Shown piece by piece: positions 1 through 47,933 of a stretch of 64,000 nucleotides of DNA. Origin of the DNA: Escherichia coli. GTDB taxonomy: Bacteria; Pseudomonadota; Gammaproteobacteria; Enterobacterales; Enterobacteriaceae. Made by a program: the position numbers and the translations under genes. The notes beneath the pieces are model-generated. The model saw only the letters and a list, made by a program, of their open reading frames with translations, had not been told where the DNA came from and did no database searches. Location of the stretch: NCBI RefSeq assembly GCF_011045215.1, contig NZ_CP049201.1; one strand, given 5' to 3'. Numbering within the stretch: position 1 is the stretch's first letter; every line of letters starts with the position of its first letter.

Positions 1-2
1 GA

Positions 3-5970: not shown

Positions 5971-6016
5971 CTCTGACTGAGAGTTTACTCACTTAGCCGC
6001 GTGTCCACTATTGCTG

Positions 6017-6906: not shown

Positions 6907-7191
6907 ATGCCCACAGCAGCCAGACTCAGCGATAAAGGCACCCAGCATGACGGTTATTATGAGACCACCATTATTGCAGGCTCCTCCACCGTCTTTATTG
7001 ATGGTATGCCCGCCGCCCGTCAGGGCGATCCGCTGACACCGCATTCCAAACCTGACCATCCCCCTCACCCCCGTAAAATCGCAGGCGGCTCTGCCACTGT
7101 CTTTATTGACGGTAAACCTGCCGCCAGAACCGGCGATGCCATTGACTGTGGCGGCGTGGTTATCGGTGGCGGCACGGTAAATATAGGCTGA
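6907..7191 (+). CDS. PAAR-domain protein (T6SS spike tip)
   Basis: Two repeats of the PAAR motif (FIDGMPAARQGD, FIDGKPAARTGD), about 95 aa, directly upstream of vgrG. Confidence 0.8.
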   Translation: MPTAARLSDKGTQHDGYYETTIIAGSSTVFIDGMPAARQGDPLTPHSKPDHPPHPRKIAGGSATVFIDGKPAARTGDAIDCGGVVIGGGTVNIG

Positions 7192-7211
7192 TTAATTATC
7201 AGGGAGGCTGT

Positions 7212-9611
7212 ATGCCCTCAGAAGGATTACGTTTCACGCTGTCGGTGGACGGTATCGTGGAGATGGCGACGGCGGTGGTGAGCTTCCGTCTGTACCAGCA
7301 CCACTGCACGCCGTTCATCCTGGATGTGGATATCGCCAGCGGGCTGTCTGACCTGACGGCGGAGGATTTTCTGGAGAAGAGCGCGGTGCTGACGGTCTGG
7401 CAGGGTGATATCCCGCAGCGTTACGTCAGCGGTATCGTGACGGAGGTGCAACTGGGGGAGAACAACGACTGGCAGATGCGTTATTCCCTGAGCATCAGCC
7501 CGCCGCTGTGGCGGGCAGGGTTACGGCAGAACTTCCGTATCTTCCAGCAGCAGGACATCCAGACGATATCAGCACAGCTTCTGAGAGAGAACGGAGTGAC
7601 GGCATGGATGCCGCTGTTTTATGAAGACCATCCGGCGCGGGAGTTCTGTGTGCAGTACGGGGAAAGCGACCTGGCGTTTCTGGCGCGGCTGTGGGCGGAG
7701 GAGGGGATTTTCTTCTTTGAGCGGTTTGCGGCGGACAGTCCGGAGCAGAAGCTGACGCTGTGCGACGATGTGGCGGGGCTGTCACAGGCGGGAGAGCTTC
7801 CGTTTAACCCGGACACATCGGCAGGAGCGGAGACGGAGTGTCTCAGTACGTTCCGTTATGAGGCGCATGTCCGCCCGTCGTCGGTGCAGAGTCAGGATTA
7901 CACGTTTAAGGTGCCGGACTGGCCGGGGATGTATGAGCAGCAGGGTGAGAACCTGAACGGACAGCTGGCGCAGTACGAGATATTTGATTATCCGGGAAGG
8001 TTCAAGGATGAGCAGCACGGCAAGGATTTCACGCTGTACCAGATGGACAGCCTGCGCAGTGATGCGGAAAAGGCCACAGGGCAGAGTAATTCACCGAAGC
8101 TGTGGCCGGGAACGCGGTTTACGCTGACGGGGCATCCGCAGAAGATGCTGAACCGTGAATGGCAGGTGGTACAGAGCATACTGTCAGGAAGCCAGCCGCA
8201 GGCGCTGCACGGCAGCCAGGGGAGGGGAACCACGCTGGGAAATCAGTTAGAGGTGATACCGGCAGACCGGACGTGGCGTCCACGGCTGCAAAGCAAACCG
8301 AAGGTGGACGGGCCGCAGAGTGCCATTGTGACCGGGCCGAAGGGTGAGGAGATATTCTGCGACGAACATGGCCGGGTACGGGTGAAGTTCCACTGGGACC
8401 GTTATCACGGGATGACGGAGGCGAGTTCATGCTGGGTGCGGGTATCGCAGGCGTGGGCGGGGCCGGGGTTCGGTAACCTGGCGATACCGCGGGTGGGCCA
8501 GGAGGTGATTGTTGACTTCCTGAACGGCGACCCGGACCAGCCCATCGTCACGGGACGGACCTACCATGAAGATAACCGCTCCCCGGGCGACCTGCCGGGA
8601 ACGAAGACGCAGATGACGATACGGTCGAAGACCTATAAAGAAAGCGGATTTAACGAGTTGCGGTTTGAAGACGCCACCAGTAATGAGCAGGTGTATATCC
8701 ACGCGCAGAAGAACATGGATACGGAGGTGCTCAACGACCGGACAACGGATGTGAAGCATGACCATACGGAGACCATTGGTAACGACCAGAAGATAACGGT
8801 GGTGAAGGGGCAGACGGTTGAGGTCGGGACCAGAAAAGAAGGAGGCCACGACCAGAGTATCACGGTGGCGAACGACCGGAGCATAACGGTACGTAACGAC
8901 CAGACGCTGAAGGTGACAAATGACCGGACGGTGAGCGTGAGTCACGATGACGGTCTGTACGTCAGAAATGACCGTAGGGTGACGGTGAAAGGGAAGCAGG
9001 AGCATAAGACGACGGGTAACCACATCAGCCTGGTGGAGGGGAAGCACAGCCTGGAGGTGAAGGGGGACCTGGCGGAGAAGGTGAGTGGCGCGCTGGGGAT
9101 AGAAGTGGACGGGGATATCGTGCTGGAGAGCAGCAGCCGGATAAGCCTGAAGGTGGGTGGCTCGTTTATCGTCATTCAGCCGGGCGGAGTGGATATTGCC
9201 GGGCCGAAGATAAACCTGAACGGTGGGGGCAGTGCGGGGACACCGGTGGGGACGATGCAGCCGGCGGTGCTGGAGGCTCCGGAGGATGAGAGCAGTGATG
9301 ATGGCAGTGATGACTCCGGAGAGGATAGTGGCAATCCCGCAGGGAGTGACGGAGGAGGTGATGGCGGTGACGATGAAGATGATCCTGAAAAATATACCCT
9401 CCAGTTCCATTTTACGGACGATGACGGGATACCGTATTCAGAGACGCAGTATATTGCCTTTTTTGAGGATGGCACACAGACGCGTGGTGAAACAGACAGA
9501 GAGGGATATACAGAAATATTTTATACAGATACAGCACAGGAAATTAAAGTCCAATTGTTATTTTCGGATGCTTTTTATATTGAGCCGGAGGGGCATTATG
9601 GCAGGGAATAA
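7212..9611 (+). CDS. vgrG: T6SS spike protein VgrG with acidic linker and C-terminal extension
   Basis: 799 aa; gp27/gp5-like core, beta-helix repeats (NDRT.. repeats), acidic stretch EDESSDDGSDDSGEDSG, then about 70-aa C-terminal tail. Confidence 0.9.
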   Translation: MPSEGLRFTLSVDGIVEMATAVVSFRLYQHHCTPFILDVDIASGLSDLTAEDFLEKSAVLTVWQGDIPQRYVSGIVTEVQLGENNDWQMRYSLSISPPLWRAGLRQNFRIFQQQDIQTISAQLLRENGVTAWMPLFYEDHPAREFCVQYGESDLAFLARLWAEEGIFFFERFAADSPEQKLTLCDDVAGLSQAGELPFNPDTSAGAETECLSTFRYEAHVRPSSVQSQDYTFKVPDWPGMYEQQGENLNGQLAQYEIFDYPGRFKDEQHGKDFTLYQMDSLRSDAEKATGQSNSPKLWPGTRFTLTGHPQKMLNREWQVVQSILSGSQPQALHGSQGRGTTLGNQLEVIPADRTWRPRLQSKPKVDGPQSAIVTGPKGEEIFCDEHGRVRVKFHWDRYHGMTEASSCWVRVSQAWAGPGFGNLAIPRVGQEVIVDFLNGDPDQPIVTGRTYHEDNRSPGDLPGTKTQMTIRSKTYKESGFNELRFEDATSNEQVYIHAQKNMDTEVLNDRTTDVKHDHTETIGNDQKITVVKGQTVEVGTRKEGGHDQSITVANDRSITVRNDQTLKVTNDRTVSVSHDDGLYVRNDRRVTVKGKQEHKTTGNHISLVEGKHSLEVKGDLAEKVSGALGIEVDGDIVLESSSRISLKVGGSFIVIQPGGVDIAGPKINLNGGGSAGTPVGTMQPAVLEAPEDESSDDGSDDSGEDSGNPAGSDGGGDGGDDEDDPEKYTLQFHFTDDDGIPYSETQYIAFFEDGTQTRGETDREGYTEIFYTDTAQEIKVQLLFSDAFYIEPEGHYGRE

Positions 9612-10401
9612 TAATACTAGTGGGACTTCACAACCCGAGTCGCAAGTATGTGTAGTACCGCAAAAAATTACAAATAAATTTAAAATAATGATGAGTAAGG
9701 CTTGTAAAGCACAGAAAATGGTTTTATTGAAAAGAGCAGATGATATTATGTCATGGGAGGGGGAACAACAACGAGATTTTATTAAAGTTTTTGGCCTTAA
9801 AGGCGAGGACATTATAAAAATCAGAAAGGTTGGGGAAGATACTGGGAAACGAATGCAAGCGAGACTATTCATAATGGATGGCATCAGACAAATAATGACG
9901 ATTGCAAATGGTTTGACGATCGAAAGCTATAAAGATTATACGAACTGCAATGAATTTGCTGCTTTTATTAGTCCACATCTTGATCCTCCTTACATTGTAA
10001 ATATCGGAGCGCATTTTGAATACAGACATGGTATAAAACAGTCGGTTACAGGTAGAGACTCTCATGTAAGTACACTTTGCCATGAAATGTCCCATATATT
10101 TTGGTATTGGGGTGACAATCAAAAAGGTGGTATGTGGACTCAGGATTATACGGGTATTAATAAGTTCGCAACAAGTAATAAGGATGAAGTTAGCTATGAG
10201 AAACATGTTTCAGTGGCTAATGATCTGGTTACATTGCGTAAAGATCAGTTATTTGAGAATGCATATAATGTTGAAAGATATTTTTATATAAAATTAAATG
10301 ATGAAGATATTGAAGCTCAAGATGAGAATATGTTAGCAAAAAAAGTAGAGGATAAAATAAAAGAGATAGAAAAATGTTTTGATGAGTTGATGGGGAAATA
10401 A
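9598..10401 (+). CDS. putative T6SS effector, HExxH zinc-metallopeptidase-like
   Basis: Start overlaps vgrG stop by 14 nt; HEMSH motif (LCHEMSHIFWYW); AT-rich versus GC-rich vgrG; the longer listed ORF 9223-10401 is an in-frame read-through of vgrG sequence. Confidence 0.6.
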   Translation: MAGNNNTSGTSQPESQVCVVPQKITNKFKIMMSKACKAQKMVLLKRADDIMSWEGEQQRDFIKVFGLKGEDIIKIRKVGEDTGKRMQARLFIMDGIRQIMTIANGLTIESYKDYTNCNEFAAFISPHLDPPYIVNIGAHFEYRHGIKQSVTGRDSHVSTLCHEMSHIFWYWGDNQKGGMWTQDYTGINKFATSNKDEVSYEKHVSVANDLVTLRKDQLFENAYNVERYFYIKLNDEDIEAQDENMLAKKVEDKIKEIEKCFDELMGK

Positions 10402-10402
10402 G

Positions 10403-11242
10403 ATGAAGAGGTTGGCTTTCTATAATCTAAATTATGTTGTACTGATGGTTTTTTTTCTTTGTTTTTTGCCATTATCTATTGCAATTGCAATAGATAATGA
10501 GAATCTTTTTGTAAAAAAATACAGATTCGGTTTTGAACGAAGAAATGACAATGGGAAACCAATTATTTATCTTAGCCATAATTTAGCGCCAGAGGAAAAT
10601 ATAAGTAATGAATTAACAAATGATGTTGTTGTTAAATTGGTGGTTAAGCCACATGCTGAAAATATTTTAGCTACTATAACTTTTTATAACAGTAGTACTA
10701 AATCGTATTTTCTCCCCAGAATATATTATCCAAAGAACTTCCAAAAAGGAAATGGAGATGTATTTGATGCTTTGTGTGATGACGAATTCTTGATTACATC
10801 AGGAAATATTAGCTTAGACTATCTAGGAGGCTTTTGTCCCTTTGAGCTTGATTTGAATTTGAGCCGATGGGTGGAAATTACGGCAGGTAAAAAAATATCT
10901 TTTGATGTAAAATTGAATGATATGCATTCATTTCTCCCCAGTTTAAATAATTATCATATAAAAACATTAAACTACAAACTTGTTAGGAGAAAATGGTTTG
11001 TATTAAAATCAATTAATGAAACATTCCTCTCTATTTTGATGAAAAGATACTCATGTAATGAATATGATTTTAGAGCTATATCATTTAGTGGAGAGGGATG
11101 TGATAATTATGAATTTGATAAAAATACGTTTTTTTTTGTTAATCAAATATTAGATAAAGATGATGAGCAACATTCTGTTCATATTAGGTCTAATGAATTT
11201 TCCATCAATATCGATGGAAGCTTGGTAAAGCAACCTTATTGA
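10403..11242 (+). CDS. putative cognate immunity protein (exported or membrane-anchored)
   Basis: Starts 2 nt after effector stop; N-terminal hydrophobic signal/anchor (VVLMVFFLCFLPLSIAIA); AT-rich. Confidence 0.5.
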   Translation: MKRLAFYNLNYVVLMVFFLCFLPLSIAIAIDNENLFVKKYRFGFERRNDNGKPIIYLSHNLAPEENISNELTNDVVVKLVVKPHAENILATITFYNSSTKSYFLPRIYYPKNFQKGNGDVFDALCDDEFLITSGNISLDYLGGFCPFELDLNLSRWVEITAGKKISFDVKLNDMHSFLPSLNNYHIKTLNYKLVRRKWFVLKSINETFLSILMKRYSCNEYDFRAISFSGEGCDNYEFDKNTFFFVNQILDKDDEQHSVHIRSNEFSINIDGSLVKQPY

Positions 11243-11299
11243 TTAAAATGTATCGCAGGTTTTATTTTCTGTAATGCTGGTGCATGTGCGTAAATATTT

Positions 11300-11730
11300 C
11301 TTAAGAGCCGGAAACACCTCTTCCGCCTTTATCGACGATAAACCTACCGCCAGAACCGGTGATGCCATTGACTGCGGTGGCGTGGTTAAAGGTGGAGGGC
11401 GATGTGGTGCTGGAGAGCAGCAGCCGGATAAGCCTGAAGGTGGGCGGCTCGTTTGTGGTCATCCATTCAGGGGGCGTGGACATCGTCGGGCCGAAAATCA
11501 ATCTCAATAGCGGCGGTAGTCCGGGAACGCCGGTGCCGACGCTGCAACCGGCGGTTCTGAAAGCGCTGGCAGATGATAAAAGTTTAGCGGCTGAGCAAAA
11601 TGATAGTAATGCATCGTCCGATCAGAATGATAACAACGATGAGGGTGAGGAAGCGCCAGAAAAATCGGTGTGTAAGGAGTGCCTGAAAAGGGCGCAAGAA
11701 GCCGCCGCCGTTTTTGCGCCTCGTGGATAA
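11300..11730 (+). pseudogene. PAAR 3' fragment fused to vgrG 3' fragment (deletion scar of a second PAAR-vgrG copy)
   Basis: 11310-11398 is near-identical to PAAR 3' end (7090-7180); 11398-11560 near-identical to vgrG 9120-9280; a distinct C-terminal tail follows. Confidence 0.7.
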
Positions 11731-11736
11731 GGGAGA

Positions 11737-12506
11737 ATGACAATGATAACAGTATCGCCACACGCTACCGATCAAGACAAATATATTATCTGGCTGAAGC
11801 AAGCTGAATCATTCTGTTCTGCCGCTGGTTTGGATTACATAGATGTGCTTGTTGACCAGGCTGGAACCGACCAACCTTTGCAAAATGATATGCTTCATCT
11901 GTCGCCAGCCATTCACTGGTATGCCCTGTTTGAAGGAACGCCTGAAGCTGAGACGATGGAGTATTCCCCTGTAGTGTTACGCCTGTACTTTGCGCTCAGT
12001 AGCCATCGCAAATTTCTGGCACAACTGATGGCGTCATTTGCTGATACGCCGCGTCTTACTTTGTTGATATCCCCTCTTACATTCGACCTGCTGGGCGGCA
12101 TCTTCAGGTATTGTCACAGGTTCAGTGGGAAGAACAGACCGGATTGCTGCGTTACTATGATAATCGGGTGTTCCCTTTACTGTTCACACATGTTTTGACT
12201 AACGAGCAGCAGGCGACATTTACTGATATTGCGTTGTTCTGGAGCTGGTTAGACCGTGATGGTGAGATTAACTGGAAATCAGGAAGTTTTTCACCAGAAC
12301 GCAGGCTTACTGACAACCCGGAGATGAATCGGGTGGATGATGTACAGGTGGGATTGATGGGCTGTATCTGCGACGCTGAAGTCCTGATGAAGGAGAAAGC
12401 AGTCAGTGAACTCAGTCAGGAAAGCTATTTTGCCCACTGTCTTGATATTGCTTTCAGGGCCAATGACGCGAAATATTTCGGAGCTTTGCGGGACTTCGAA
12501 GGATAA
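11737..12506 (+). pseudogene. hypothetical T6SS accessory protein (adaptor-like position), apparently frameshifted
   Basis: Two overlapping ORFs (11737-12198, 12111-12506) in different frames, directly after the vgrG tail fragment. Confidence 0.35.
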
Positions 12507-12819
12507 TATTGTGGTGATGTACGGGGAGATTTATCTGTTTAAAAGTCCGTAGCTGTTAATATCAAGAGATAATCGTGAAATAAACGGAAAATCAAGCTCG
12601 ACATGTAATGGTAGTATCCATCATGTTGCATTTGTGTTCGATCGTAATGTCAGTTCACTTGGCTGCAATATATTTTGCGTAATATCATCAATGCTCTGTC
12701 GATATTCCAATGTGTGACAATCGAAAGATATGCATTTTATTTGCTTCTATGTCAAAACTTTATTGTCGTAGAAACAATACCCATCAATTAAAATCTCTCA
12801 AAGTAAAAGAACCAGCAAC

Positions 12820-13362
12820 ATGTCCAGCAAAATAAGAAATGGAATGAATATAACAAAAGTAGTTAAAGGCTGTCTGGTATTAATTTTGATGGTGATTTCT
12901 GGTTGCTCAGCAGATAATTACGACGATTATACTGCAGGTGATCTCCGGGCAATAAATCATATTAAAGGTATCAGTATTAATTGGTTCACCGTAAATGGTT
13001 ATCGGGTCCATGGTTTGGGCGGTGGATATTGCTGCATAATGTTACCAAAGAAGTGGCATTCTGGATTAAAAGCCCGGATCGAGTGGGAAGTAGACCCGAC
13101 CCCCCTTGAACCTATTGCAATGAAAAAAGAAGGTTTTGGCTATGAAGAAGATGCTTATGCTAAACATGCTGCAAATTATCAAAAATATAAAGTAATTGTT
13201 GACATCCCGGAATACGGCGCTGAACGTTGTGGCCTGACCGTTCATTTTCTGCCGTGTAATCAGATTAAAGTGACAACCGTCTGCGAGGGCTATGGCACAC
13301 CGAATTATCCTATCAAAGAACCCCGCGAGATGAAGGAACCTGCAACATGTCCAGCAAAATAA
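12820..13362 (+). CDS. lipoprotein, candidate Tle1 immunity (Tli-like)
   Basis: Lipobox ISGC after signal peptide; Cys-rich periplasmic domain; 3' end overlaps tle1 start. Confidence 0.5.
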   Translation: MSSKIRNGMNITKVVKGCLVLILMVISGCSADNYDDYTAGDLRAINHIKGISINWFTVNGYRVHGLGGGYCCIMLPKKWHSGLKARIEWEVDPTPLEPIAMKKEGFGYEEDAYAKHAANYQKYKVIVDIPEYGAERCGLTVHFLPCNQIKVTTVCEGYGTPNYPIKEPREMKEPATCPAK

Positions 13363-15440
13363 GTGGTCTGGCTTTTCCGTGTTATGCCCCCCCGGTGTTC
13401 CCTGAAGATGGGCGATTAATATTATCTGAAGCGCAGGTAAACGCGAACTACCTAAAACAAATCAATAAAACAGAAGAGCACAAAACCAACTGTAGTAAAC
13501 AGGCTGGATTTAGAATTGGCTTTACGTGTAATCAAAGTATGCATATTAGTCTGTTTTTTGATGGTACAAATAATAATGAATATAATGACACTCCTGGACA
13601 CCCAACCAATATTGCCAAACTGTTTCATACGACCTATCAGAACGCAGAAGAACAGGGATATTTTAACTACTATATACCGGGTGTAGGCACACCATTTCCC
13701 AAGATAGGTGAAATGGATTACAGCAACAGCGGGCTGGAGTTCGCTACTGGTGGTGAAGATCGAATTAATTGGGCATTATTACGCCTCGTGGATGCCCTGA
13801 GCTATTCCATTGACCCTTCCCATAAGCGACTGGATGATAATGTGGCAAAAGAGCACATTCCTCTTATGCGCGCTCCCTGGCCTATGACTGGTGAAGTGAA
13901 TCGTCGCAATGTGATTAACCCCTACCTGGAAAAATTACAGGGACTGTTAGAGCAAGCCAGTCCGCGCCTGCTAAACGTAAAGCTGTTTATCTACGGATTT
14001 TCCCGTGGCGCAGCGGAAGCACGAACTTTTGTTAACTGGTTGACTCAGTTAGCTTGCCCGCAGGAGCAACAGGTGATGCTGGCCGGGTTAGCTGTCAGTA
14101 TTGAGTTTTTGGGGCTGCTGGATACCGTAGCTTCTGTGGGGGCGGCGCATGTTTTACCGGGCGCTGCCGGTCATATGGGATGGGCCGATAGTACTCAGCA
14201 ACTCCCTGATGAGAGGCAGTTTCCCGGCCTGATTAAATGCTGCCGCCACTTCGTTGCCGCGCATGAGCAGCGGCTGTGCTTTCCGCTGGATTCAATCCGT
14301 CGTCCAGACGGAAATTATCCTTTAAATGCAGAGGAAATTATCTATCCGGGGATGCACTCTGATGTCGGTGGTGGCTATCCCGTTCGCGATCAGGGGAAGT
14401 CCTGTGGTGACTCAGGCGAAATTCTTTCTCAGATAGCACTGCATGATATGTATCTTGCTGCATTTGATTCAGGAGCACCACTTGCTGTTTATTCTAAATT
14501 TGTTACTCCATTAATAAAAGGTGTGTCGCCTCTGCGAATTATGAGTCCTTCTAGCGTAAAGGAATTTACGATTGCTAATTCATTAACAAAACGCTTCAAC
14601 ATCTGGCGACAAACGCTGCTGAACACCACCTTGCAGGGTACAGAAGAAATGATTGATACGAGGGAAGGTTATCACTCCTATCAACTTGCCCAGGTTCTTG
14701 AAAGCGCAATTAGCGATCAGATCGGCTGGATCACCGCCTGGCGTATCGGTCGCTATGCGAATAACAGCCTTCTTGTGCAACCTTTTTATATTAAGGCGCC
14801 ACAGCTGGATAAAGATGGACTTGATAAAGAGGCTAAAGCGCGTAAAGAACAAATGGAAAATATTGAAAAAGAGCGGGCGAACAAGCAGAAAGGGAATGGC
14901 ACACTTGATGAAAGTAATCAGGGCATTCCTATCCTTGACCCAACCAATGCTCAGTATCAGTTGCGAGAGGCAGCCCGAGAATTTCAGAGCGATTATAAAG
15001 GATGGACGCGCGATATTAACGGCAGCGTCATGGAGAAAGCCATTCAGATTCTTGTGGATGTCATTCCTAAATATCCGGTGTATCTGATTAATGGCGATGA
15101 TGAAGCAAAAGAATATCAGCAAATTAAGGCTATGGGAGACGGACTCTATCCACAATTTTTTATTGATTCACTGGGAACGGGAACGCGTACTCAGCCATGC
15201 GCTGAATTACTGGCCCTCTATGATGACCAGGTTCACGACTCCCGCGCCTGGTTTATGCAAAGTTCGCTGGGTGGACGTGAACCCTGGGGCGGTTATTTTC
15301 GCTACCGCATGATTTACTTCGGTGATGAGGCTAATAAAGAGCTGAAGCTAATCTCTGCAGATGGCAAAGTTGTTGGCGATCAGCCCACATCCAACCGGGT
15401 CATTTATTGGATGGAATCGAAAACGGTGAGCCGAGGTTAA
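13347..15440 (+). CDS. tle1: T6SS phospholipase effector, Tle1 family (DUF2235 alpha/beta hydrolase)
   Basis: 697 aa; GxSxG lipase motif in YGFSRGA; located in the vgrG island. Confidence 0.75.
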   Translation: MSSKISGLAFPCYAPPVFPEDGRLILSEAQVNANYLKQINKTEEHKTNCSKQAGFRIGFTCNQSMHISLFFDGTNNNEYNDTPGHPTNIAKLFHTTYQNAEEQGYFNYYIPGVGTPFPKIGEMDYSNSGLEFATGGEDRINWALLRLVDALSYSIDPSHKRLDDNVAKEHIPLMRAPWPMTGEVNRRNVINPYLEKLQGLLEQASPRLLNVKLFIYGFSRGAAEARTFVNWLTQLACPQEQQVMLAGLAVSIEFLGLLDTVASVGAAHVLPGAAGHMGWADSTQQLPDERQFPGLIKCCRHFVAAHEQRLCFPLDSIRRPDGNYPLNAEEIIYPGMHSDVGGGYPVRDQGKSCGDSGEILSQIALHDMYLAAFDSGAPLAVYSKFVTPLIKGVSPLRIMSPSSVKEFTIANSLTKRFNIWRQTLLNTTLQGTEEMIDTREGYHSYQLAQVLESAISDQIGWITAWRIGRYANNSLLVQPFYIKAPQLDKDGLDKEAKARKEQMENIEKERANKQKGNGTLDESNQGIPILDPTNAQYQLREAAREFQSDYKGWTRDINGSVMEKAIQILVDVIPKYPVYLINGDDEAKEYQQIKAMGDGLYPQFFIDSLGTGTRTQPCAELLALYDDQVHDSRAWFMQSSLGGREPWGGYFRYRMIYFGDEANKELKLISADGKVVGDQPTSNRVIYWMESKTVSRG

Positions 15441-16275
15441 GTTCATAAGATTGAGGGGTTGGTGACCGGGAAAATGTAGACATGTAGTGCCTATTCACCC
15501 CAGTTCAAACCCATCCGCATCCCGCCATGCCGGAAACTTCACACTGTACTCCCAGGGAAAAATCACGTAATGCTGTTTTTTTTGTACTAAATAATTCGCA
15601 TTTTATGTTCAATAATTGAGGTGTTCCTTATTACCTAAAGCTGTTTTTCATTGCTTATACATGATCAAATACTCATTGCATAATTAAGGGGGACAAAATG
15701 GAACTTAAAAAATTGATGGAACATATTTCTATTATCCCCGATTACAGGCAAGCCTGGAAAGTGGAACATAAATTGCCAGATATTCTATCTGTTAACTATT
15801 TGCGCCGTTATTTTTGGTGCATAAGGCTGGGAAGATATAGATGATTTGGGGAAACACATCCCGATTTTTTGAAGTGATATGGTGATTTTGAAAATGGTAT
15901 TCCTGTTCACGATATCATTGCCAGAGTTGTATCCTGTATCAGTCCTGCAAAATTTCATGAGTGCTTTATTAACTGGATGCGTGACTGCCATTCCTCAGAT
16001 GATAAAGATGTCATTGCAATTGATGGAAAAACGCTTCGGCACTCTTATGACAAGAGTCGCCGCAAGGGAGCGATTTATGTCATTAAAATCCGTCTTCATA
16101 TTATTTGCGATGTCCCTGATGAACTTATTGATTTCACGTTTGAATGAAAAGGGCTGAAGAAATTATGCATGGCAGTCTCCTTTCGTTCAATAATAACAGA
16201 ACAAAAGAAAGAGCCAGAAATGACGGACAGATATTATAGCATTTCTGCTGATTTAACCGCAGAGAAGTTCGCCAC

Positions 16276-18337
<2,062 letters not shown>

Positions 18338-18648
18338 TTATTTTCAGGGATACGGAACATCGCTATTAATATTTCAAAGAAAGATAAGATACTCAAGGCA
18401 GGGGCAAGATGTAAGATGTGAAAGCAGCTGCGGACAGAGACTACCTCGCGTCAGTCCTTGCGGGGGCGGGCTTTCGTAATCTTACTCTGCAAGGGATGAT
18501 GAAAAGTGCAACTTTATTCCACGCAGCTATTTAGACAGCGTACAGTAAACAAACGAAAGTTGTTATTTCAATGGTCAGGGCAAGAGCATAAAGTGTTTAC
18601 TACACACTATGCTCTTGTCCTGGAGTCAGGTCTTGTTTGGAGGGATAA

Positions 18649-19152
18649 ATGGTAGATATTGTCGAGGCCGATAAAACGGATATTTATTTCATTCAGGAGA
18701 GTGTTTATGGCAAAATCGGGTTGCCAGCTTTTGGTAATACAATAGGACCATCCGCACAGCAGGTTGTTAAAAAGGTATTCGCTGTCGTTAAAGAACGAGA
18801 TAAAACACATGCAAAACAGAGATTATTGTTGGAATATAATGGTAACAAACTCTGGATGAATGCTATTGATGGCAGTGAAGCTATCCTACCAATAGAATTT
18901 TCTAAGCGATACGAACTTTCATTATTCAATACTACTAATTTTGGAGAAGATCCTTTTCCTGATGTTAATTTATATAATAATATGAAATCAAGTTTTTTTG
19001 TAAGGTTTGGTGGAACATCCCATCCCGAGGCTTGGGCTATTTATAATGCAAGTACGAAAGAGGTTAAATATATAGAAACTGCAAGAGAAATTGATAAAAT
19101 ATTCAGTGATTTTAACTTGAGTGGTGCATTGCCAATTCACATTGGTCAATGA
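18649..19152 (+). CDS. hypothetical protein
   Basis: 167-aa ORF in AT-rich DNA between ISAs1 fragments; no recognisable motif. Confidence 0.4.
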   Translation: MVDIVEADKTDIYFIQESVYGKIGLPAFGNTIGPSAQQVVKKVFAVVKERDKTHAKQRLLLEYNGNKLWMNAIDGSEAILPIEFSKRYELSLFNTTNFGEDPFPDVNLYNNMKSSFFVRFGGTSHPEAWAIYNASTKEVKYIETAREIDKIFSDFNLSGALPIHIGQ

Positions 19153-19218
19153 TTTTTTAAATTGTGTGATTAAATAATTGAACATTAATGATGATTTATA
19201 GCATCATTATTCTATAAC

Positions 19219-19731
19219 ATGAATAAACGGATTGAATGTGTTATGTTAAAAATGAGTTTATACGTAATAATATTGTTATTTTCCTTTCAGATTAGTGCAG
19301 CCATTACTAGCAAGGAAAGTGAGGTTGTTTCACCATTATTAATGGATGTTAATTCTTCACTAACAATGGAAAATATTTCTGAATTATCCACATCATCGGA
19401 ACCATCGCAACAGGGGGTATTTCCTGTAATATGTACTCGACTTCATCCTGGTTCCGTAATGAAACGCCAGTTATTAACCGGCTGGGGGCCTGTTTTTATA
19501 ATTGGTGATGATCCTTTTTCTCTGCGCTGGATGAGTGAACATCTGGAGATCCTTAAATCGCTAAATGCCCTTGGTTTGGTTGTTAATGTTGAATCAGTAG
19601 AACGAATGGAGGTATTACAGCAGCGGGCTGATGGGTTATTGTTATTGCCAGTTATCTGCGATAATTTCGTGCAAACTCTGCAATTAAATGCTTATCCGGT
19701 ATTAATCACAGAGATGGAAATATCACAATGA
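19219..19731 (+). CDS. hypothetical exported or membrane protein
   Basis: 170 aa with N-terminal hydrophobic segment (LYVIILLFSFQISAA); AT-rich. Confidence 0.4.
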   Translation: MNKRIECVMLKMSLYVIILLFSFQISAAITSKESEVVSPLLMDVNSSLTMENISELSTSSEPSQQGVFPVICTRLHPGSVMKRQLLTGWGPVFIIGDDPFSLRWMSEHLEILKSLNALGLVVNVESVERMEVLQQRADGLLLLPVICDNFVQTLQLNAYPVLITEMEISQ

Positions 19732-19759
19732 TTAATAACATAATTACTGCAAATAATAT

Positions 19760-19990
19760 TGTAATTTTGAAAATGGTAATCCTGTTCACGACACCATAAT
19801 TAGAGTTATGTCTTGTATCCGTTCAGTATAATTTCACGAGTGCTTTATTAACTGGATGCGTGACTGCCATTCATCAAATGACAAAGACGTCATCGCGATT
19901 GATGGAAAAGCACTTCCACACTCCTATGATAAAAGTGGTCGCAGGAGAGCGGGCTTTCGTAGTCTTCCCCGACTCTCCCCAGCCCTAAAC
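19760..19990 (+). pseudogene. ISAs1-family (H-repeat) transposase internal fragment (yafF-like)
   Basis: Encodes [53 protein letters not shown]; paralogous to 15890-16060. Confidence 0.6.
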
Positions 19991-20004
19991 ACAACCCCCA
20001 CTCA

Positions 20005-42043: not shown

Positions 42044-42119
42044 GCCGATATAGCTCAGTTGGTAGAGCAGCGCATTCGTAATGCGAAGGTCGTAGGTTCG
42101 ACTCCTATTATCGGCACCA
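42044..42119 (+). tRNA. thrW: tRNA-Thr (anticodon CGU)
   Basis: GCCGATATAGCTCAGTTGGTAGAGCAGCGCATTCGTAATGCGAAGGTCGTAGGTTCGACTCCTATTATCGGCACCA, cloverleaf with CGT anticodon and 3' CCA. Confidence 0.9.
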
Positions 42120-42133
42120 TTTAAATCAATAAG

Positions 42134-43297
42134 TTACACATCATTAGTACCTTCCTTATTTTTTGACTGGGACAAATTTGGGACCGATGGGTTCAGGATC
42201 GAGTCTATTTGCCGTGCGTGTTCGGTAAGGTGATTAGGTGCAAGGTGAGCATATCGACGAACCATTTCGATAGACTCCCAGCCTCCCATTTCCTGTAACA
42301 CTGACAACGGGACTCCGGCTTGAACCAGCCAACTTGCCCAGGTGTGTCTCAAGTCGTGAAATCTGAAATCATCAATACCAGCCCGTCTCAGCGCCGCTTT
42401 CCAGGCTGTGTTTGCGTCATACCGCATCTTCCTTACTGTTGGCGCTTTCGTTCCGTCTGGTTTGGTACAGCTTTCCTTGTACACAAATACCCAACGGTGA
42501 TGATTCCCGATTTGTTTTTTCAAAACGCGACATGCAGTATCATTCAGCGCAACGCCAATTGCGCGGTTTGATTTACTCTCTTCCGGGTTTATCCATGCCA
42601 CCCGGCGCTGCATGTCTATTTGTTGCCATTCAAGGTTGATGATGTTCGAGCGTCTTAAGCCTGTTGCCAGTGCAAATTCAACAACAGACTTTAATGGCTC
42701 CGGACATTCATCAATCAGCCTTTGTGCTTCATGGGGCTCCAGCCAGCGGATCCGTTTATTCTTTGGTTGAGGCACTTTAATAATTGGTGCCTTATCCAGC
42801 ATTTTCCATTCACGCTCTGCGGCTCTTAGTAGGGCCTTTATAAATGAAAGATGCGTAGCCTTCGTTGCAACGGACGCTGGTTTTGGCGTGTATTCTGGAA
42901 CAGGTTTCCCTTTTTTTCTGCATGCTTCTGCCCTGAGTCTCCAGTTTTCCTCATGACGCCGGTTCGTCATTTTCTGCATTGCTGAATAAATTTTTGATTC
43001 AGTAATGTCTCTTAGTTGCATTCCTGCGAAATGTTGAAGCCAGAATCCGATCCGGCTTTTGTCATCGTCCAGTGATTTTTTATGTGCTTTCTCTTCAAGC
43101 CACCTGACACACGCTTCCTCGAACGTTATATCAGGTATTTCACCAAGTTTGCTGACCCGCCATGCTTCAGCCTTTAGCTTGTCATGGAGTTCTGTCGCCT
43201 GCCTTTTGTCCTTTGTTCCAAGAGACTGTTTAAATCTTTTACCGTTCGGCAATGTGAAACTGGCGTACCATATTTCACCTCTGCGGAAGAGTGACAT
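42134..43297 (-). CDS. int: phage integrase (tyrosine recombinase, P22-like)
   Basis: 387 aa, C-terminal catalytic R..HxxR..Y region ([11 protein letters not shown]...RYAHL); adjacent to tRNA. Confidence 0.9.
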
Positions 43298-43524
43298 TTT
43301 CTTTCCTCTGTTATGCCATCACCCGCGCTCACCTGGACAGTATGCAGCGGAGACTGAAGAGCCGCAATGCAGGCTTGTCGTGTTGTGAGGTAAGGAGATT
43401 TATTCTTAGTGGGATCTTTGCGTGTTGCCTGAAGACGCCCTGTGCGTATCCAGTTGGTGGCAGTCGGTCTGGATATCTTGAGAAAATGACAGGCCTCATC
43501 GAGTGTGAGGCTGTATGGCTCCAT
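43174..43524 (-). CDS. xis: excisionase
   Basis: 116-aa ORF from [31 protein letters not shown] (HTH), overlapping int 5' end. Confidence 0.6.
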
Positions 43525-43829
43525 TATTTCACCTCTTGCTGTGACATTGTTGAAAAATGGATACCAGCTCGTTGCTGCCAGACGATCCAACCGAGAGTCA
43601 TATCCCATGCCATGTATTCGTTATTGCCGTTTTTTGCTCTCCGACGATCTACTAAGTCACCGAAACGCTTTTCCATGAATAATTCATAAGCTTCGCGTTC
43701 ATCTGGTTCTACTTCCAGAGATAGGAGTGCGATTTCATAAGCACGGCGCTCAATATCGTCTCGCACGTCAAGGCTGCTGATACGCTCTTTAATTTCTTTA
43801 ATCAGTTCTTTGTCGGTAAAAGTGGTCAT
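43524..43829 (-). CDS. hypothetical phage early protein
   Basis: 101-aa ORF tightly packed in early-left operon. Confidence 0.4.
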   Translation of the reverse strand: MTTFTDKELIKEIKERISSLDVRDDIERRAYEIALLSLEVEPDEREAYELFMEKRFGDLVDRRRAKNGNNEYMAWDMTLGWIVWQQRAGIHFSTMSQQEVK

Positions 43830-44191
43830 TATGCTCCAGCCTCCGGTGCTTTTGGCATTACTGCCCAGTGAGTGATATTGACGTTTTCAAGGTCCCCGAC
43901 CTGAAATGTCCACTGCCATTCTCCGGTTTCTTTTTGTCCCCAGGTGTACCAGAGAGAACGCCAGCCAATTAGCCAGCCTTCTCCGTTAGCATCGAATAAC
44001 AAAACACTTTCATTTGCTGGTGGCAGTTCAGTTGACACTGGTATTACTTTGTTTTCCTGTGCTGCACATTTAGCTTCAAGCGCATCGAATTTACGCACCA
44101 GGTATTCAGCATCTGTTTCATTTACTTTCAGATCTCGCGGTACACATCTCCCACGAAGAAACCCTTCCATTTCGAAAACATTCATGCGCAT
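43829..44191 (-). CDS. phage protein, DUF551-like
   Basis: C-terminal ...ITHWAVMPKAPE resembles the DUF551 signature; start/stop overlap with neighbours. Confidence 0.45.
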   Translation of the reverse strand: MRMNVFEMEGFLRGRCVPRDLKVNETDAEYLVRKFDALEAKCAAQENKVIPVSTELPPANESVLLFDANGEGWLIGWRSLWYTWGQKETGEWQWTFQVGDLENVNITHWAVMPKAPEAGA

Positions 44192-44730
44192 TTGCGTAAC
44201 TCCGATAACTCGTTAAAGCGTTCCATAAACATCCCGTAGGCATGGCCCGGTGCCAGTGGAATCACGTTGAACATCTCTGTTGCCGGGATACCTTCCAGTA
44301 CAGGCCAGAAAGAGCCATCATCAAGCCCGAGATCGCGGCGTTCGGTTGCCAGCATGATGAGATCGGCATATTTCACGGGTGTACTCATAACTGGGGGTAA
44401 CCCGTATTTCTCACGGATTACGGCGTCTATTTTTTCTTCCATCCGTTTATAGTCAGGAAGAAGGCGTTTCAGTGGTGCGGGAATGTCCTGGCAATACGCT
44501 TCTGTTGCATCATGCATTAACGCTTCAAAAGCAAATTCCTGCGGCACCAGCTGGCTGCAAAGAACCGCATGTTGGGCGACGCTGTAGAAGTGCGAAAGAT
44601 GACCGGCAAAGCGACAGATATTTGAAAGGGAAACCGCGATATCGTTAATATCGATGTCGTCTTTATTTATCTTGTCATAATAAAAATGCTTCCCGGAAAA
44701 AGTTTTAATAAATGACATTTTGTTCTCCAC
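44182..44730 (-). CDS. HD-domain phosphohydrolase (YfdR-like 5'-deoxynucleotidase)
   Basis: HD motif (LMHDATEAY) and upstream His (HFYSVAQH). Confidence 0.65.
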   Translation of the reverse strand: MENKMSFIKTFSGKHFYYDKINKDDIDINDIAVSLSNICRFAGHLSHFYSVAQHAVLCSQLVPQEFAFEALMHDATEAYCQDIPAPLKRLLPDYKRMEEKIDAVIREKYGLPPVMSTPVKYADLIMLATERRDLGLDDGSFWPVLEGIPATEMFNVIPLAPGHAYGMFMERFNELSELRKCA

Positions 44731-44845
44731 GTATATGCACTACACCGCGCTGAATTCTGGTAAAAGGAAGCCCTCACCATCCGGTGATTATTGAGTTAAT
44801 TACGTTTCCATAAATGCCCCCGCAGGGGCATTTGCAGTAATGAAA

Positions 44846-45670
44846 TCAGGCGGTGAAAGTACCAATAAAGGTTTCTACTTTGCTGTCCTTGAATTTCTCA
44901 ACAAGCAGATCACGAAATTCGTTAGCCATTTCTTCCTGCACCGCCTCCAGCTGAATAATGCGCAGAACCAGTACCGGACGATCGCCAGTGATAATGCTGA
45001 GGCGTAATTTAAACGGACGTTCTTTCAGACCTTCAAACGGAATGCATTTAAATTCAAATGCCACTGGCATAATGTCTTTGGTCTTCGCTTCGACAGACTC
45101 CATCAGGGAGCGTTTGCCGCTGAAGTCATTATCTTCAAAATCAGCGGTCTGGTTTGCTTCAATCGTGATTTTACGGACCGCCGCAGCCGCTTTTGTTGCC
45201 TGAATGGTGTCACCATTAGCATCAAAGCCCACAAGGTAGTCGGCCCAGTCTTCAATCCATTCTGCCAGTGATTTCTGGGAGTTACGCTCGCCATTAACAG
45301 ACAACAGAGCAGAGAACGGTGCTGTCTTTTTCAGTTTGAGAGTGGCGGTGTTATCTGCGTGACCTGGTTCATCAATAGTACCCAGGTTAAGCACACTGAC
45401 GGCACGCATATTATCAGCATCGATAAAGCAGCGGGTGCCTTCATCTGCAAGATCTTTAGAATAACGGGTAAAGTCATCGATGCTGGCAGTGGAAAGCGCA
45501 CCACGGAAACGGAAGCGATTTAAATTAAATTTTTCCAGATCATGAATGCGGAAATTCTCAGGCAATGCCACAGCATCGGCACCAATCTTACTGATAATTT
45601 CATTAACACCCTGAGCAGAAATAAGGGCATGGATTTGATTAATTGCGGTTGCGTCTAAGTTCTGAGACAT
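44846..45670 (-). CDS. phage protein, DUF2303 (YfdQ-like)
   Basis: 274 aa, resembles CPS-53 YfdQ as remembered. Confidence 0.55.
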
Positions 45671-45735
45671 AATAAGTCCTCACTATATAAAGATATTCAG
45701 TGATGAGATAAATAATCAGTTTATTACGAACGATA

Positions 45736-46098
45736 TTAACGACCTGCTGCGCGGAGTTTTCCGTCAGGTTCACCGGCAAGAGTCAGTAATTGTCCCTGGT
45801 CTTCCTGCAGAATAGTCAGGCGACCACCGCGATTGACATACATCGGCGTTTCGGTGGTGTCTTCTTCGGAAATTTTCCCGCGGTTAGTTGGGCGAACATA
45901 TGAGAGTTTGTGTTTGATTTTCACACGGTTCTCATCAAACGGTTCGATTTCCAGATTGAGTGAGACCTTCCCTTTGGTTTTCGTGTTCATCACACCGGAA
46001 GCGACCTCACTGAGAACTGCGCCGATTTTGGTTTCAAATACGCCGCCGTCCAGCTCCCCGATAAATGCCTGCACATCAGTACTGCGTTCGCTAGCCAT
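45736..46098 (-). CDS. hypothetical phage protein
   Basis: 120-aa ORF from MASERSTDVQ; the longer listed ORF extends upstream without support. Confidence 0.4.
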   Translation of the reverse strand: MASERSTDVQAFIGELDGGVFETKIGAVLSEVASGVMNTKTKGKVSLNLEIEPFDENRVKIKHKLSYVRPTNRGKISEEDTTETPMYVNRGGRLTILQEDQGQLLTLAGEPDGKLRAAGR

Positions 46099-46536
46099 TT
46101 TGCTGCTCCTCATCATATCGACCCTGCAAGGTCGGTTGGTTTCTCCACAAAACAGAGAAGAACACCTGCGGTGGCAGCCGCCCGGATGGATTGGGTTATG
46201 AGCCCGTCGTCCGGTGATGCTCTTCTCTGTTTTGCAAAAAAGGACGGTACCAGCCGGAAGCAAGGGTACAAACTGGTACCGCCAGGACTACACACAGCAT
46301 AAAGTTGTGGTGCCGGGTGCCTCCCGGTGCCTGGCGAAGGTTGCACACCAGGCGGGTGGGTATCCACAGAAGGTCGACTGTCAGCCTCAACCTTAACCCG
46401 CGTGCGCTGAGCCGCATTCACCACAACGCTAAGGATTCTCTTTGGTTGAAAATACTTAGCTGTTATGTGCCTGTCTTTTCACCACTTCAGGCTCGGTGGT
46501 ATCCTTTTAAGCCCGTATACATAAAAGGAAAATCAA

Positions 46537-46782: not shown

Positions 46783-47168
46783 AAAAAGGCCATTTCCATT
46801 CAGGGTCTGATGGAAATACTTCAGCCTGTTCCAAAGCACGGCGTAAAGAGAACACAACTCCAGCCATAATCTGATGTTTCCCATTGGTCCAGCTATCGCC
46901 GCTCTGATCTACAGGGGCGGCTATGTCGTATGACCAAACGACTTCACAGTTATTGTTTAAAATCTGGACTTTCATTTCATACACCTGCTTTAACATGAGT
47001 GCCTAGTGGCACAACATGACTCAACGAATCATCCTGGATTTCATATGCCCCAGGCGGCTACTTCGTGGGCGTCCTGCCTGTTCGTTGTTTCTTTTGGGTA
47101 CATTATGTATCTCAAAGGTACATTGTCAAGTATAAAAAAACCTGCCGAAGCAGGTTCATAAACATTGA

Positions 47169-47843
47169 TTAGGCTTTGATTTTGTATCTTCTTGGTTTTC
47201 CTGAGAAAATCACTGTACCAATTATAGAGCAATTACCGTTGATCTTAATGTAAGGCTCAGGCCAGTTTGGGTTTAACGCTTTGAGATAACGCTGTGTCCC
47301 ATCTTCTATCAACCTTTTGAAGGTGGTTTCGCCTGTATCGTGCATCAATGCAATAACGTCGTCACCGTGGCAGGCAGGTACTTCAGGATCGACAAAAATC
47401 ATGTCTCCCGGGCGGTACTCATCAATCATTGAATCACCTATCACCCGCAAGATATAAGTCATTTCCCCACAGGGTACAGGGCAGGGATACGTTTCTGCTG
47501 TGCTCAAATCAACCTCAGAATATCCAACTTCTTTCCATGCTCCGGCCTGTACCCATGATATGACAGGGACTAATGTGATTTGTTTATTAGTGATTGAAAC
47601 ATCAGGTTTTTTTGTGATGTTCGTTGTCTGGTGTTCTTGATCGAGCCATCCGACAGGCAGGTCGAAACATTTTTCGATGTGTCGTGCCATGCTGTCACCG
47701 ATATTTTTAGTAGCACCATCTCCCATAAACCTGCTGGTCTGGGTTGGCTCGCGATCAATCATAGTGGCAAAGGAAGAATTCCCGCCAACACCATCTCTCA
47801 GTTTTCTGGCGTTAGACCGCCGGATGTCATGGATTGTTTTCAT
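47169..47843 (-). CDS. cI: phage repressor CI (HTH plus S24 LexA-like peptidase domain)
   Basis: 224 aa; C-terminal S24 domain with Ser (GDSM) and Lys; divergent from cro. Confidence 0.85.
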   Translation of the reverse strand: MKTIHDIRRSNARKLRDGVGGNSSFATMIDREPTQTSRFMGDGATKNIGDSMARHIEKCFDLPVGWLDQEHQTTNITKKPDVSITNKQITLVPVISWVQAGAWKEVGYSEVDLSTAETYPCPVPCGEMTYILRVIGDSMIDEYRPGDMIFVDPEVPACHGDDVIALMHDTGETTFKRLIEDGTQRYLKALNPNWPEPYIKINGNCSIIGTVIFSGKPRRYKIKA

Positions 47844-47933
47844 AACGAAATTAAAACCCTTGTACCGTTAAGGTACAAGTATCTTGAAGGTTCATTTCAA
47901 TCATGTAATATGTACACCGGAGGTACATATTGT
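47844..47933. promoter_or_regulatory. cI/cro divergent promoter-operator region
   Basis: Inverted repeats with GTAC cores: cttgtaccgttaaggtacaag (47857-47877) and atgtacaccggaggtacat (47911-47929). Confidence 0.5.

Follow-up and report, generated by a model that had tools for sequence, protein, structure and literature searches.

The interval from 44182 to 45670 of the window (the whole 64,000-nt stretch of Escherichia coli contig NZ_CP049201.1, assembly GCF_011045215.1, that was analysed) is spanned exactly by two ORFs, both on the minus strand. By sequence they are near-identical copies of yfdQ and yfdR, two already known prophage genes of E. coli K-12: 270 of 274 residues are shared with K-12 YfdQ (b2360) and 176 of 178 with K-12 YfdR (b2361), the substitutions in the latter being V23D and D170E (D at residue 23 and E at residue 170 here). 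The first-pass annotation had read the pair as a member of the HD-domain hydrolases and a DUF2303 protein, which is borne out by the K-12 identity, by the HD residues of YfdR and by the PF10065 match of YfdQ (E 8e-92; 307.7 bits, cut-off 26.6; profile positions 2–269 of 269). Loci that are 99% identical carry matching RefSeq annotation, and the 2.8-kb cluster is present in 3307 of 5426 complete E. coli genomes (~60%). As originally put, the finding adds nothing new: the genes are named in K-12 and their joint function was addressed in a 2016 paper.

RefSeq starts yfdR at an ATG preceded by a Shine-Dalgarno sequence, GGAG, at 44728–44725; the longest possible ORF (44182..44730) begins at a GTG and would add 4 residues. 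The stop of yfdR overlaps yfdS by 10 nt and that of yfdS overlaps yfdT by 1 nt, suggesting, as far as gene layout can tell, translational coupling of the three genes. The coordinates of all features are collected in Table 1.

Table 1. Features of the yfdP–yfdT region and of the prophage around it (positions in the window)
Feature	Position	Strand	Basis or remark
tRNA-Thr, adjoining the operon end	42044-42119	+	tRNA annotation
Integrase gene	42134-43252/43297	-	Phage_integrase, E 3.5e-48
Excisionase-like gene	43174-43524	-	HTH_17, E 4.6e-8
yfdT	43524..43829	-	96/101 identical to K-12 YfdT
yfdS, DUF551 (PF04448)	43829..44191	-	115/120 identical to K-12 YfdS
yfdR, HD-domain, YfbR-like 5'-deoxynucleotidase kind, 178 aa	44182..44718	-	RefSeq start
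yfdQ-yfdR spacer, 127 nt, conserved, predicted structured	44719..44845	-	sequence, fold, covariation
H3, predicted hairpin, loop GUGUAG here and GUGCAG in most relatives	44748-44737	-	in spacer
H2, predicted hairpin	44787-44774	-	in spacer
H1, predicted terminator-like hairpin	44833-44812	-	in spacer
yfdQ, DUF2303 (PF10065), 274 aa	44846..45670	-	Pfam and K-12 identity
yfdP, 120 aa	45736..46098	-	118/120 identical to K-12 YfdP; phrog_204
PL-like early-left promoter, TTGACA-16-CATAAT	47102..47129	-	11/12 match to promoter consensus
Operator-like TGTAC-N7-GTACA repeats overlapping PL	47106-47122, 47086-47104		sequence repeats
cI-like repressor gene, YmfK-type, LexA/S24	47169..47843	-	Peptidase_S24, E 1.5e-26; RefSeq ymfK, LexA family

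The prophage is lambdoid and inserted at tRNA-Thr beside proA, and its module is of the CPS-53/SfV type. The PL-like promoter lies a short way downstream of the repressor gene (cI-like, S24) and is followed in order by a small ORF, an STnc100-like RNA and yfdP-yfdQ-yfdR-yfdS-yfdT-xis-int. The operator-like repeats that overlap this promoter recur at 47861–47928, in the divergent region (repressor/cro) that separates the repressor gene from the rightward genes. Shared repeats at one end and xis and int at the other confirm the earlier assignment of the pair to an early-left operon, and yfdP-T appear from the sequence to sit in a leftward, repressor-controlled PL operon with xis and int distal on the same strand. 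Because PL and the repressor/cro region share their operators, the module would be silent in the lysogen. Lambdoid phages commonly have the yfdP-T cluster in their early-left operon, as in LLS, ST64B, phiNP and ArgO145 (PMC12315714); SfV, cdtI and Stx2c phages carry it as well.

The closest known system is CPS-53 (KpLE1) of E. coli K-12, which has the same genes in the same order at 95–99% protein identity, with the same 127-nt element between yfdQ and yfdR. The two prophages differ in their surroundings: here the integration site is tRNA-Thr/proA, the immunity region is of the YmfK type and the integrase is a different one, whereas CPS-53 lies at argW with IntS and TorI. CPS-53 is, moreover, a decayed remnant that has lost the repressor and PL context, while the present prophage keeps both. 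YfdQ is 100% identical to SfV orf31, and SfV ORFs 29–31 have been described as homologues of YfdQRST (PMC4776307).

The refuting outcome proposed for the HD assignment, non-conservation of the motif on alignment, was not what we found: across 13 homologues, the most distant at 31% identity, H50, H69-D70, E73, D78 and D119 of YfdR never vary. In a profile search, H50 and H69-D70 aligned to the YfbR ligands H33 and H68-D69 (PDB 2paq/2par/2pau), and the following Glu of YfbR aligns to E73; the stretch HDATEAYCQD of YfdR falls on HDASEVLTGD of YfbR (pattern HDxxExxxxD, with E73 and D78 invariant). D119 occupies an invariant column of the MAFFT alignment that is common to YfbR, in which it corresponds to D137. 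The profile matches among solved structures include OxsA, Lin2634 and YfbR, the last a deoxynucleoside-monophosphate phosphatase and the housekeeping 5'-deoxynucleotidase of E. coli; two of the solved relatives are uncharacterised. The closest solved one is Atu1052 of Agrobacterium (PDB 2gz4; E 3e-14, full length, 31–33% identity), which shares the motif residues and, being uncharacterised, offers fold information only. Homology to HD proteins is clear from 2gz4 and the profile matches, and YfdR is predicted to be a metal-dependent HD-fold phosphohydrolase with an intact active site.

Its relation to YfbR is distant. BLASTP gives a local match of 40 residues at 33% identity (profile E 6e-4), and the scores lie below the cut-offs of PF12917 (YfbR-like, 24.2 against 25.9 bits), PF13023 (HD_3, 16.9 against 22.5 bits) and the NCBIfam equivalog NF003009 (EC 3.1.3.89, 19.8 against 122 bits). 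By these measures YfdR belongs to a paralogous HD family and is no orthologue of YfbR, and since it stays below the Pfam and NCBIfam cut-offs for YfbR its substrate may differ. We know of no report that YfbR binds DnaA. PHROGs (phrog_318) and RefSeq label the family dNMP phosphatase/5'-deoxynucleotidase. The 333 phage records with a homologue include many lytic or jumbo phages with unrelated hosts, and phages of Caulobacter, Bacillus and Stenotrophomonas; DNA polymerase and ligase genes are its neighbours in Burkholderia phage FKKS2 and Achromobacter phage JWF. The early-expressed Dmp of phage T5, to which the same reaction is ascribed (dNMP to deoxynucleoside), was ruled out as a homologue: hhalign detected no relation (probability 0.01), and Dmp has no Pfam domain.

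YfdQ (phrog_210) belongs to a family of 1465 clusters at 50% identity. Its AF2 model is confident (pLDDT 90.7) and gave no significant match to solved folds in libraries dated 8 April 2026. These libraries do not include PDB 9o7m, deposited as 'YfdQ Protein', which is a DUF2303 homologue (E 1.9e-44 against the window protein, with identity well under 50% as judged by eye from the printed alignment; E 1.5e-85, full length, against the YfdQ family profile). The entry holds 36 chains, implying a large assembly; our literature search found no paper on it. YfdP, modelled by AF2 as a helix and a three-stranded sheet, has no sequence homologue in the PDB, and its fold search returned only weak NTF2/cystatin-like matches, none at E ≤ 1e-3.

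The pairing of YfdQ with YfdR had been described as conserved in CPS-53-like prophages. This is true of enterobacterial lambdoid phages, with YfdR present in 117 and YfdQ in 116 of 120 IMG/VR loci, all of which were gathered via the spacer motif. It does not extend further: in ten diverse phage loci a YfdP homologue lay directly upstream of YfdQ in all ten, as it also does in Pasteurella phage Pmp13, whereas YfdR was a neighbour of YfdQ in only two. The partner of YfdQ that is kept across distant phages is therefore YfdP rather than YfdR. YfdP and YfdQ may form a separable two-gene cassette, without a recognisable fold, in the early regions of many Proteobacteria phages. Such separation can be seen in locus L097, where detailed checking found yfdR with its leader, and yfdS, but no P–Q cassette, and in locus L125, whose upstream junction is the same in sequence and which has neither YfdP nor YfdQ.

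The spacer between yfdQ and yfdR is as conserved as the coding sequences that flank it. Covariation, which extends to the two hairpins other than the terminator-like H1, shows in the alignment made by MAFFT as well as in one fitted to the model, RNAalifold returned the same three hairpins plus an extra two-pair helix, and two single-stranded blocks (GAARCGUAAUU and GAGGGMUUC) are invariant. We suggest that these 127 nt may be a conserved structured RNA. A minus-strand promoter scan of the spacer found none, and manual inspection gave no convincing -35/-10 pair; an Rfam search of the spacer gave no match at E ≤ 1. Searches for the element beyond Enterobacterales found nothing: a scan of species-representative genomes gave only four true matches (Pseudocitrobacter, Enterobacter, Buttiauxella and Mixta), and the covariance model found none in phage loci of Vibrio, Pseudomonas, Pasteurella, Xylella, Halomonas, Acinetobacter, Burkholderia, Caulobacter or Achromobacter. 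The spacer may act as a cis-regulatory leader that uncouples expression of yfdR-S-T from that of yfdP-yfdQ, and we regard it as a candidate new cis-regulatory RNA.

The first-pass annotation called the pairing functionally unexplained, a statement overtaken by published K-12 work on DnaA binding and oriC inhibition, which is also covered in a review (PMC5448010). YfdR binds domain I of DnaA via Phe46 and competes with DiaA and DnaB (Noguchi and Katayama 2016, PMC4776307). Few other phage proteins are known to target this domain. Multicopy yfdQ and yfdR together with either yfdS or yfdT block initiation at oriC, yfdQ is genetically needed for suppression of hda-185, and extracts inhibit initiation in vitro (PMC4776307). 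On its own, purified YfdR had no inhibitory effect in the in vitro initiation assay, none of YfdQ, YfdS and YfdT was recovered together with YfdR or DnaA on purification, and a ΔyfdQRST strain showed no replication phenotype (PMC4776307). All functional data on the K-12 cluster come from multicopy or over-expression experiments, and the authors concede a possible artefact (PMC4776307). The same paper, citing Zimmerman 2008, gives the nucleotide affinity of K-12 YfdR as much below that of YfbR and its function as elusive; in this second-hand form, the literature reports weak, low-affinity 5'-(deoxy)nucleotidase activity for the K-12 orthologue.

These functional data were obtained on proteins 95–99% identical to those of the window. 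Upon induction or infection the module would be transcribed leftward, toward xis and int. The best-documented activity of YfdR, shown for the K-12 protein, is protein binding, at domain I of DnaA through Phe46 and in competition with DiaA and DnaB, and over-produced YfdR and YfdQ with YfdS or YfdT block initiation at oriC. Taken together, DnaA binding and the initiation block point to an early role against host initiation, as the K-12 authors also suggest, and we consider it fairly probable that this CPS-53/SfV-type early-left yfdPQRST module serves to lower initiation of the host chromosome during lytic growth, in the manner of lambda P. Lambda P itself targets domain III of DnaA, loads DnaB, is as far as known unrelated in sequence and belongs to the rightward replication module, which makes the likeness a functional analogy only. 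The comparison, with an early lambdoid protein that likewise binds DnaA and blocks initiation in the host, was drawn by Noguchi and Katayama (PMC4776307).

It may instead be that YfdR is mainly an enzyme reshaping the nucleotide pool in phage DNA replication, with DnaA binding as a side effect of over-production. Catalytic residues that are strictly kept, even in phages whose hosts differ greatly in their DnaA, argue that the ancestral, selected function is enzymatic and not DnaA binding. Supporting this further are a profile that reaches two nucleotide phosphohydrolases (YfbR and OxsA), the 333 phage records with a homologue, the gene's place beside DNA polymerase and ligase in FKKS2 and JWF, and the dNMP phosphatase label. 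[quoted passage not shown]

Least probable of the readings weighed here is counter-defence, which the earlier note raised. YfdR would then degrade signalling nucleotides (messengers of CBASS, Pycsar, Thoeris or type III CRISPR) or counter nucleotide-depletion defences. Circumstantially it fits an early phage gene in an accessory-like region that encodes an HD hydrolase whose substrate is ill defined. We found no support for it: the literature searched contains no link between defence and either YfdR or DUF2303, the sole tested phenotype concerns replication, and PADLOC, which covers defence and not anti-defence, had no matches for any of the five proteins. YfbR and OxsA, the characterised solved relatives, act on nucleoside mono- to triphosphates and are not known to act on cyclic nucleotides. 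We also regard it as very unlikely that YfdQ and YfdR make up an obligate two-protein machine in which the HD enzyme has the DUF2303 protein as its specific partner or regulator. Adjacency in 116–117 of the 120 enterobacterial loci, a very diverged P–Q–R triad in Pmp13 and the requirement for yfdQ in hda-185 suppression speak for such a pair, but no YfdR adjoins YfdQ in 8 of 10 diverse phages (Stx2a phages among them), and YfdR homologues occur without YfdQ in 4 of 5, as well as in many lytic and jumbo phages. Furthermore, yfdR can be retained without the P–Q cassette, a terminator-like hairpin stands between the two genes, and pull-downs gave no stable YfdQ–YfdR contact (PMC4776307).

Alongside the host-initiation role of YfdR, then, YfdQ would not be a dedicated partner of this protein but part of a separate, much more widespread cassette with YfdP, parted from yfdR-S-T by the terminator-like hairpin and the structured leader. 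Judged by analogy with 9o7m, YfdP and YfdQ may form a large assembly with a host-takeover function of its own. The joint reading, a cis-regulatory RNA in the spacer together with a separable YfdP–YfdQ cassette active in host takeover, we put forward tentatively, as possible though somewhat short of probable. Neither the spacer RNA nor the cassette was described in the sources searched, and YfdP–YfdQ, as a large phage family with an unrecognised fold, is worth keeping on record. As to the YfdR role, the present prophage, in keeping its repressor, PL and integration module, provides an inducible setting for it.

Two minus-strand ORFs fully occupy 44182-45670, and the first-pass annotation of an HD-domain protein beside a DUF2303 protein is confirmed by the ORFs, PF10065, the RefSeq names and identity to K-12. 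The 274-aa protein (YfdQ) matches DUF2303 (PF10065) at full length (E 8e-92, 307.7 bits, gathering score 26.6). The shorter protein (YfdR) is matched by the YfbR-like and HD_3 Pfam models slightly under their cut-offs, and by the NCBIfam YfbR equivalog far below (19.8 bits, cut-off 122). RefSeq starts yfdR at an ATG at 44718, with GGAG six bases before, the GTG at 44730 being the start of the longest ORF only. Measured against the proteins of the MG1655 prophage CPS-53, 176/178 residues are identical in YfdR, 270/274 in YfdQ, 118/120 in YfdP, 115/120 in YfdS and 96/101 in YfdT. The stretch 43500-46300 is present in 3307 of 5426 complete E. coli genomes (megablast), and its RefSeq names are yfdT, yfdS-like, yfdR (5'-deoxynucleotidase), yfdQ and yfdP. 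The yfdR and yfdS genes share 10 nt and yfdS and yfdT share 1 nt, and all five module proteins are acidic (pI 4.8-5.9).

Features of the early-left region, in window coordinates
Feature	Position	Strand	Remarks
tRNA-Thr	42044-42119		end of gene series, adjoins proA
Integrase/excisionase overlap	43174-43297		longest integrase ORF (start 43297) overlaps HTH_17 gene by about 120 nt
yfdR, longest ORF	44182..44730	-	182 aa counted from GTG
yfdQ-yfdR spacer	44719-44845	-	127 nt
H3	44748-44737	-	short stem, loop GUGCAG (GUGUAG in window), about 10 nt before Shine-Dalgarno
H2	44787-44774	-	UCRCC-N3-4-GGYGA; A-U, G.U, G-C variants
H1	44833-44812	-	directly after yfdQ stop codon; AAAUGCCCC-UGCG-GGGGCAUUU, then UUUAUGG
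yfdQ	44846..45670	-	274 aa
yfdP	45736-46098	-	120 aa, ATG start
yfdP as in ORF list	45736-46263	-	175 aa, TTG start
Hairpin upstream of yfdP	46117-46136		
STnc100-like stretch	46234-46449	-	upstream of yfdP
TGTAC-N7-GTACA repeat, second copy	47086-47104		
TGTAC-N7-GTACA repeat	47106-47122		overlaps leftward promoter
Promoter TTGACA-16-CATAAT	47129..47102	-	11/12 match; directly after terminator-like hairpin of repressor gene
LexA/S24-type, cI-like (YmfK-type) repressor gene	47169-47843	-	upstream of operon
TGTAC-N7-GTACA repeats, three further copies	47861-47928		divergent region between repressor and rightward genes

Both genes are well known and their joint function has been studied, so the first-pass description of the pair as functionally unexplained does not hold: binding of YfdR to DnaA and a joint block of initiation are published. 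[quoted passage not shown] In the same study, extra copies also inhibited initiation in dnaAcos, seqA and wild-type cells, DnaA specifically bound YfdR in a manner requiring DnaA Phe46, and extracts containing YfdQRST inhibited oriC replication in vitro. By itself, purified YfdR had no inhibitory effect in vitro, neither YfdR nor DnaA brought YfdQ, YfdS or YfdT along on purification, and deletion gave no phenotype; the authors conceded that an over-expression artefact was possible (PMC4776307). They suggested that an ancestral phage used the YfdQRST proteins as lambda uses P (PMC4776307). Reviews list YfdR among the ligands of DnaA domain I (PMC5448010). Homologues of yfdR, yfdQ and yfdP are common in lambdoid early-left operons (LLS, ST64B, phiNP, ArgO145) and occur independently of whether a recombination module is present (Genome Research 2025, PMC12315714). 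A preprint reports that CPS-53 YfdQ and YfdM control particle production of phage SW1.

The best-supported mechanism is one in which YfdR would combine weak nucleotidase activity at an intact HD phosphohydrolase site with binding to DnaA domain I and, expressed from the early-left promoter PL together with YfdQ and either YfdS or YfdT, would turn down host initiation. We consider this probable but put it no higher, since over-expression experiments supply all of the evidence. YfdR is a member of the HD superfamily, and was aligned with 12 homologues: four enterobacterial proteins (66-72% identity), those of phiNP and Eeyore, five from distant phages (Pseudomonas VW-6B, Burkholderia FKKS2, Pasteurella Pmp13, Caulobacter CcrColossus and Achromobacter JWF) and the solved Agrobacterium Atu1052. 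H50, H69, D70, E73, D78 and D119 are invariant across the 13 sequences, as are R36, K84 and E126. As judged from this alignment the active site is intact, so that non-conservation of the HD residues, named in the first-pass annotation as grounds for rejection, does not apply. The alignment profile matched, in order, the PDB sequences 2gz4, Lin2634, YfbR (2paq) and OxsA, pairing SVAQH(50) of YfdR with NVSEH(33) of YfbR, the housekeeping 5'-deoxynucleotidase, and HDAxE with HDASE; YfdR is a paralogue, not an orthologue, of YfbR.

That the catalytic residues are strictly conserved among phages whose hosts are unrelated favors the view that YfdR acts mainly as an enzyme. The nucleotide affinity of YfdR is described in PMC4776307, citing Zimmerman et al. 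2008, as much below that of YfbR, and yfdR deletion left CMP yield unchanged in an engineered strain (PMC10870394); we regard a mainly enzymatic role as a less likely alternative. A part in counter-defense, as guessed in the first-pass annotation, found no support and seems to us very improbable; PADLOC models, which cover defense rather than anti-defense, gave no match to the five module proteins.

The yfdP-yfdQ cassette and the structured yfdQ-yfdR spacer are the only parts that might reward further work. Conservation of the yfdQ-yfdR pairing in CPS-53-like prophages, also claimed at first pass, was borne out among 120 IMG/VR loci recovered via the spacer motif, with homologues of YfdR in 117, YfdQ in 116, YfdP in 110, YfdS in 83 and YfdT in 70; outside the enterobacterial lineage the pairing breaks up. 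Phage records with YfdQ number 184 and those with YfdR-like proteins 333 (tblastn), and their taxonomic spreads are unlike, many lytic and jumbo phages carrying YfdR. In ten diverse YfdQ loci (Stx2a phage phiON-2011, phiNP, Eeyore, Thalassomonas BA3, Vibrio 34E29.1, Vibrio D93, Halomonas H4907, Xylella Usme, Pseudomonas SC_9 and Acinetobacter fJoAci01) a YfdP homologue lies directly upstream of YfdQ in all ten, whereas a YfdR homologue lies downstream in only two. Among five diverse YfdR-carrying phages, a P-Q-R triad occurs only in Pasteurella Pmp13, in very diverged form, and in two others the HD gene adjoins DNA polymerase and ligase genes. One phage locus, L097 (3336-3800), lacks yfdP-yfdQ while keeping the yfdR leader, yfdR and yfdS, and another, L125, was read likewise from an identical upstream junction sequence. 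The junction lies inside hairpins, one upstream of yfdP and the other H1, as though hairpins marked the limits of the cassette. The ten-to-two contrast and the cassette loss therefore indicate that the evolutionary unit is yfdP-yfdQ, to which a yfdR-yfdS-yfdT block is joined in the CPS-53/SfV/ST64B lineage. In lytic-looking Vibrio, Xylella and Acinetobacter phages, the yfdP-yfdQ pair sits among replication and recombination genes.

The YfdQ family comprises 1465 clusters at 50% identity (E <= 1e-3), and an AlphaFold2 model built from 82 diverse sequences is confident (pLDDT 90.7, pTM 0.82). Sequence searches gave a single solved homologue, 9o7m ('YfdQ Protein', an entry of 36 chains), which is absent from fold libraries dated to 8 April 2026 and for which a literature search gave no paper. 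YfdP carries PF27127 in precomputed annotations (missing from the local Pfam copy) and matches phrog_204; its model places a long helix on a three-stranded sheet (pLDDT 83), and searches of the PDB by structure and by sequence gave no significant match. Of the two yfdP readings, it is the 120-aa form that is conserved.

Between the window and phiNP or Eeyore, the yfdQ-yfdR spacer is 58-61% identical, on a par with the coding sequences on either side (58-67%) and above the yfdP-yfdQ spacer (40-43%). It contains three hairpins, of which H1 looks like a terminator, and the G.U form of H2 argues for pairing in the sense RNA. All sequences share the single-stranded blocks GAARCGUAAUU and GAGGGMUUC without change at these consensus positions, a partly circular result because both blocks belonged to the pattern with which the sequences were collected. 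When 50 distinct sequences were aligned with MAFFT, paired cells made up 96% versus 40-54% with partners slid, and in a second alignment, fitted to the structure (17 distinct sequences, about eight lineages), 98.5% are paired, with double changes in 6/16 pairs and almost no covariation in slid controls, both sets consisting of related sequences from few lineages. RNAalifold independently gives the same three hairpins plus one extra two-pair helix. No Rfam family matched the spacer, and a covariance model search found the element in Enterobacterales only. It remains with yfdR in L097 and L125, where yfdQ is absent. We infer that a terminator or attenuator precedes a structured yfdR leader.

Placement of the pair in an early-left operon is supported by the sequence, namely the repressor, the promoter with shared repeats and the gene order to the integrase, because the promoter is overlapped by operator-like repeats common to the repressor divergent region. 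From 47000 to 42134 every gene lies on the minus strand, in the order small ORF, RNA-like stretch, yfdP, yfdQ, yfdR, yfdS, yfdT, an HTH_17 excisionase-like gene and a tyrosine integrase. Five copies of the TGTAC-N7-GTACA palindrome flank the repressor gene, two of them overlapping the leftward promoter, and probably serve as OL and OR operators in this immunity type. The RNA-like stretch inside the PL operon, labelled 'frameshifted hypothetical protein' in RefSeq, is a full-length, sub-threshold match to the Rfam sRNA STnc100 (RF02076; 38.4 bits versus a gathering score of 47, E 9e-7) and includes a terminator with a U-run. RefSeq starts the integrase later (about 43252), yet its overlap with the HTH_17 gene remains. 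Across window positions 1-20000, G+C per kilobase ranges from 0.31 to 0.60 (e.g., 0.59 at 7-9 kb and 0.31 at 10-11 kb), a pattern suggestive of mosaic, horizontally acquired DNA upstream of proBA.
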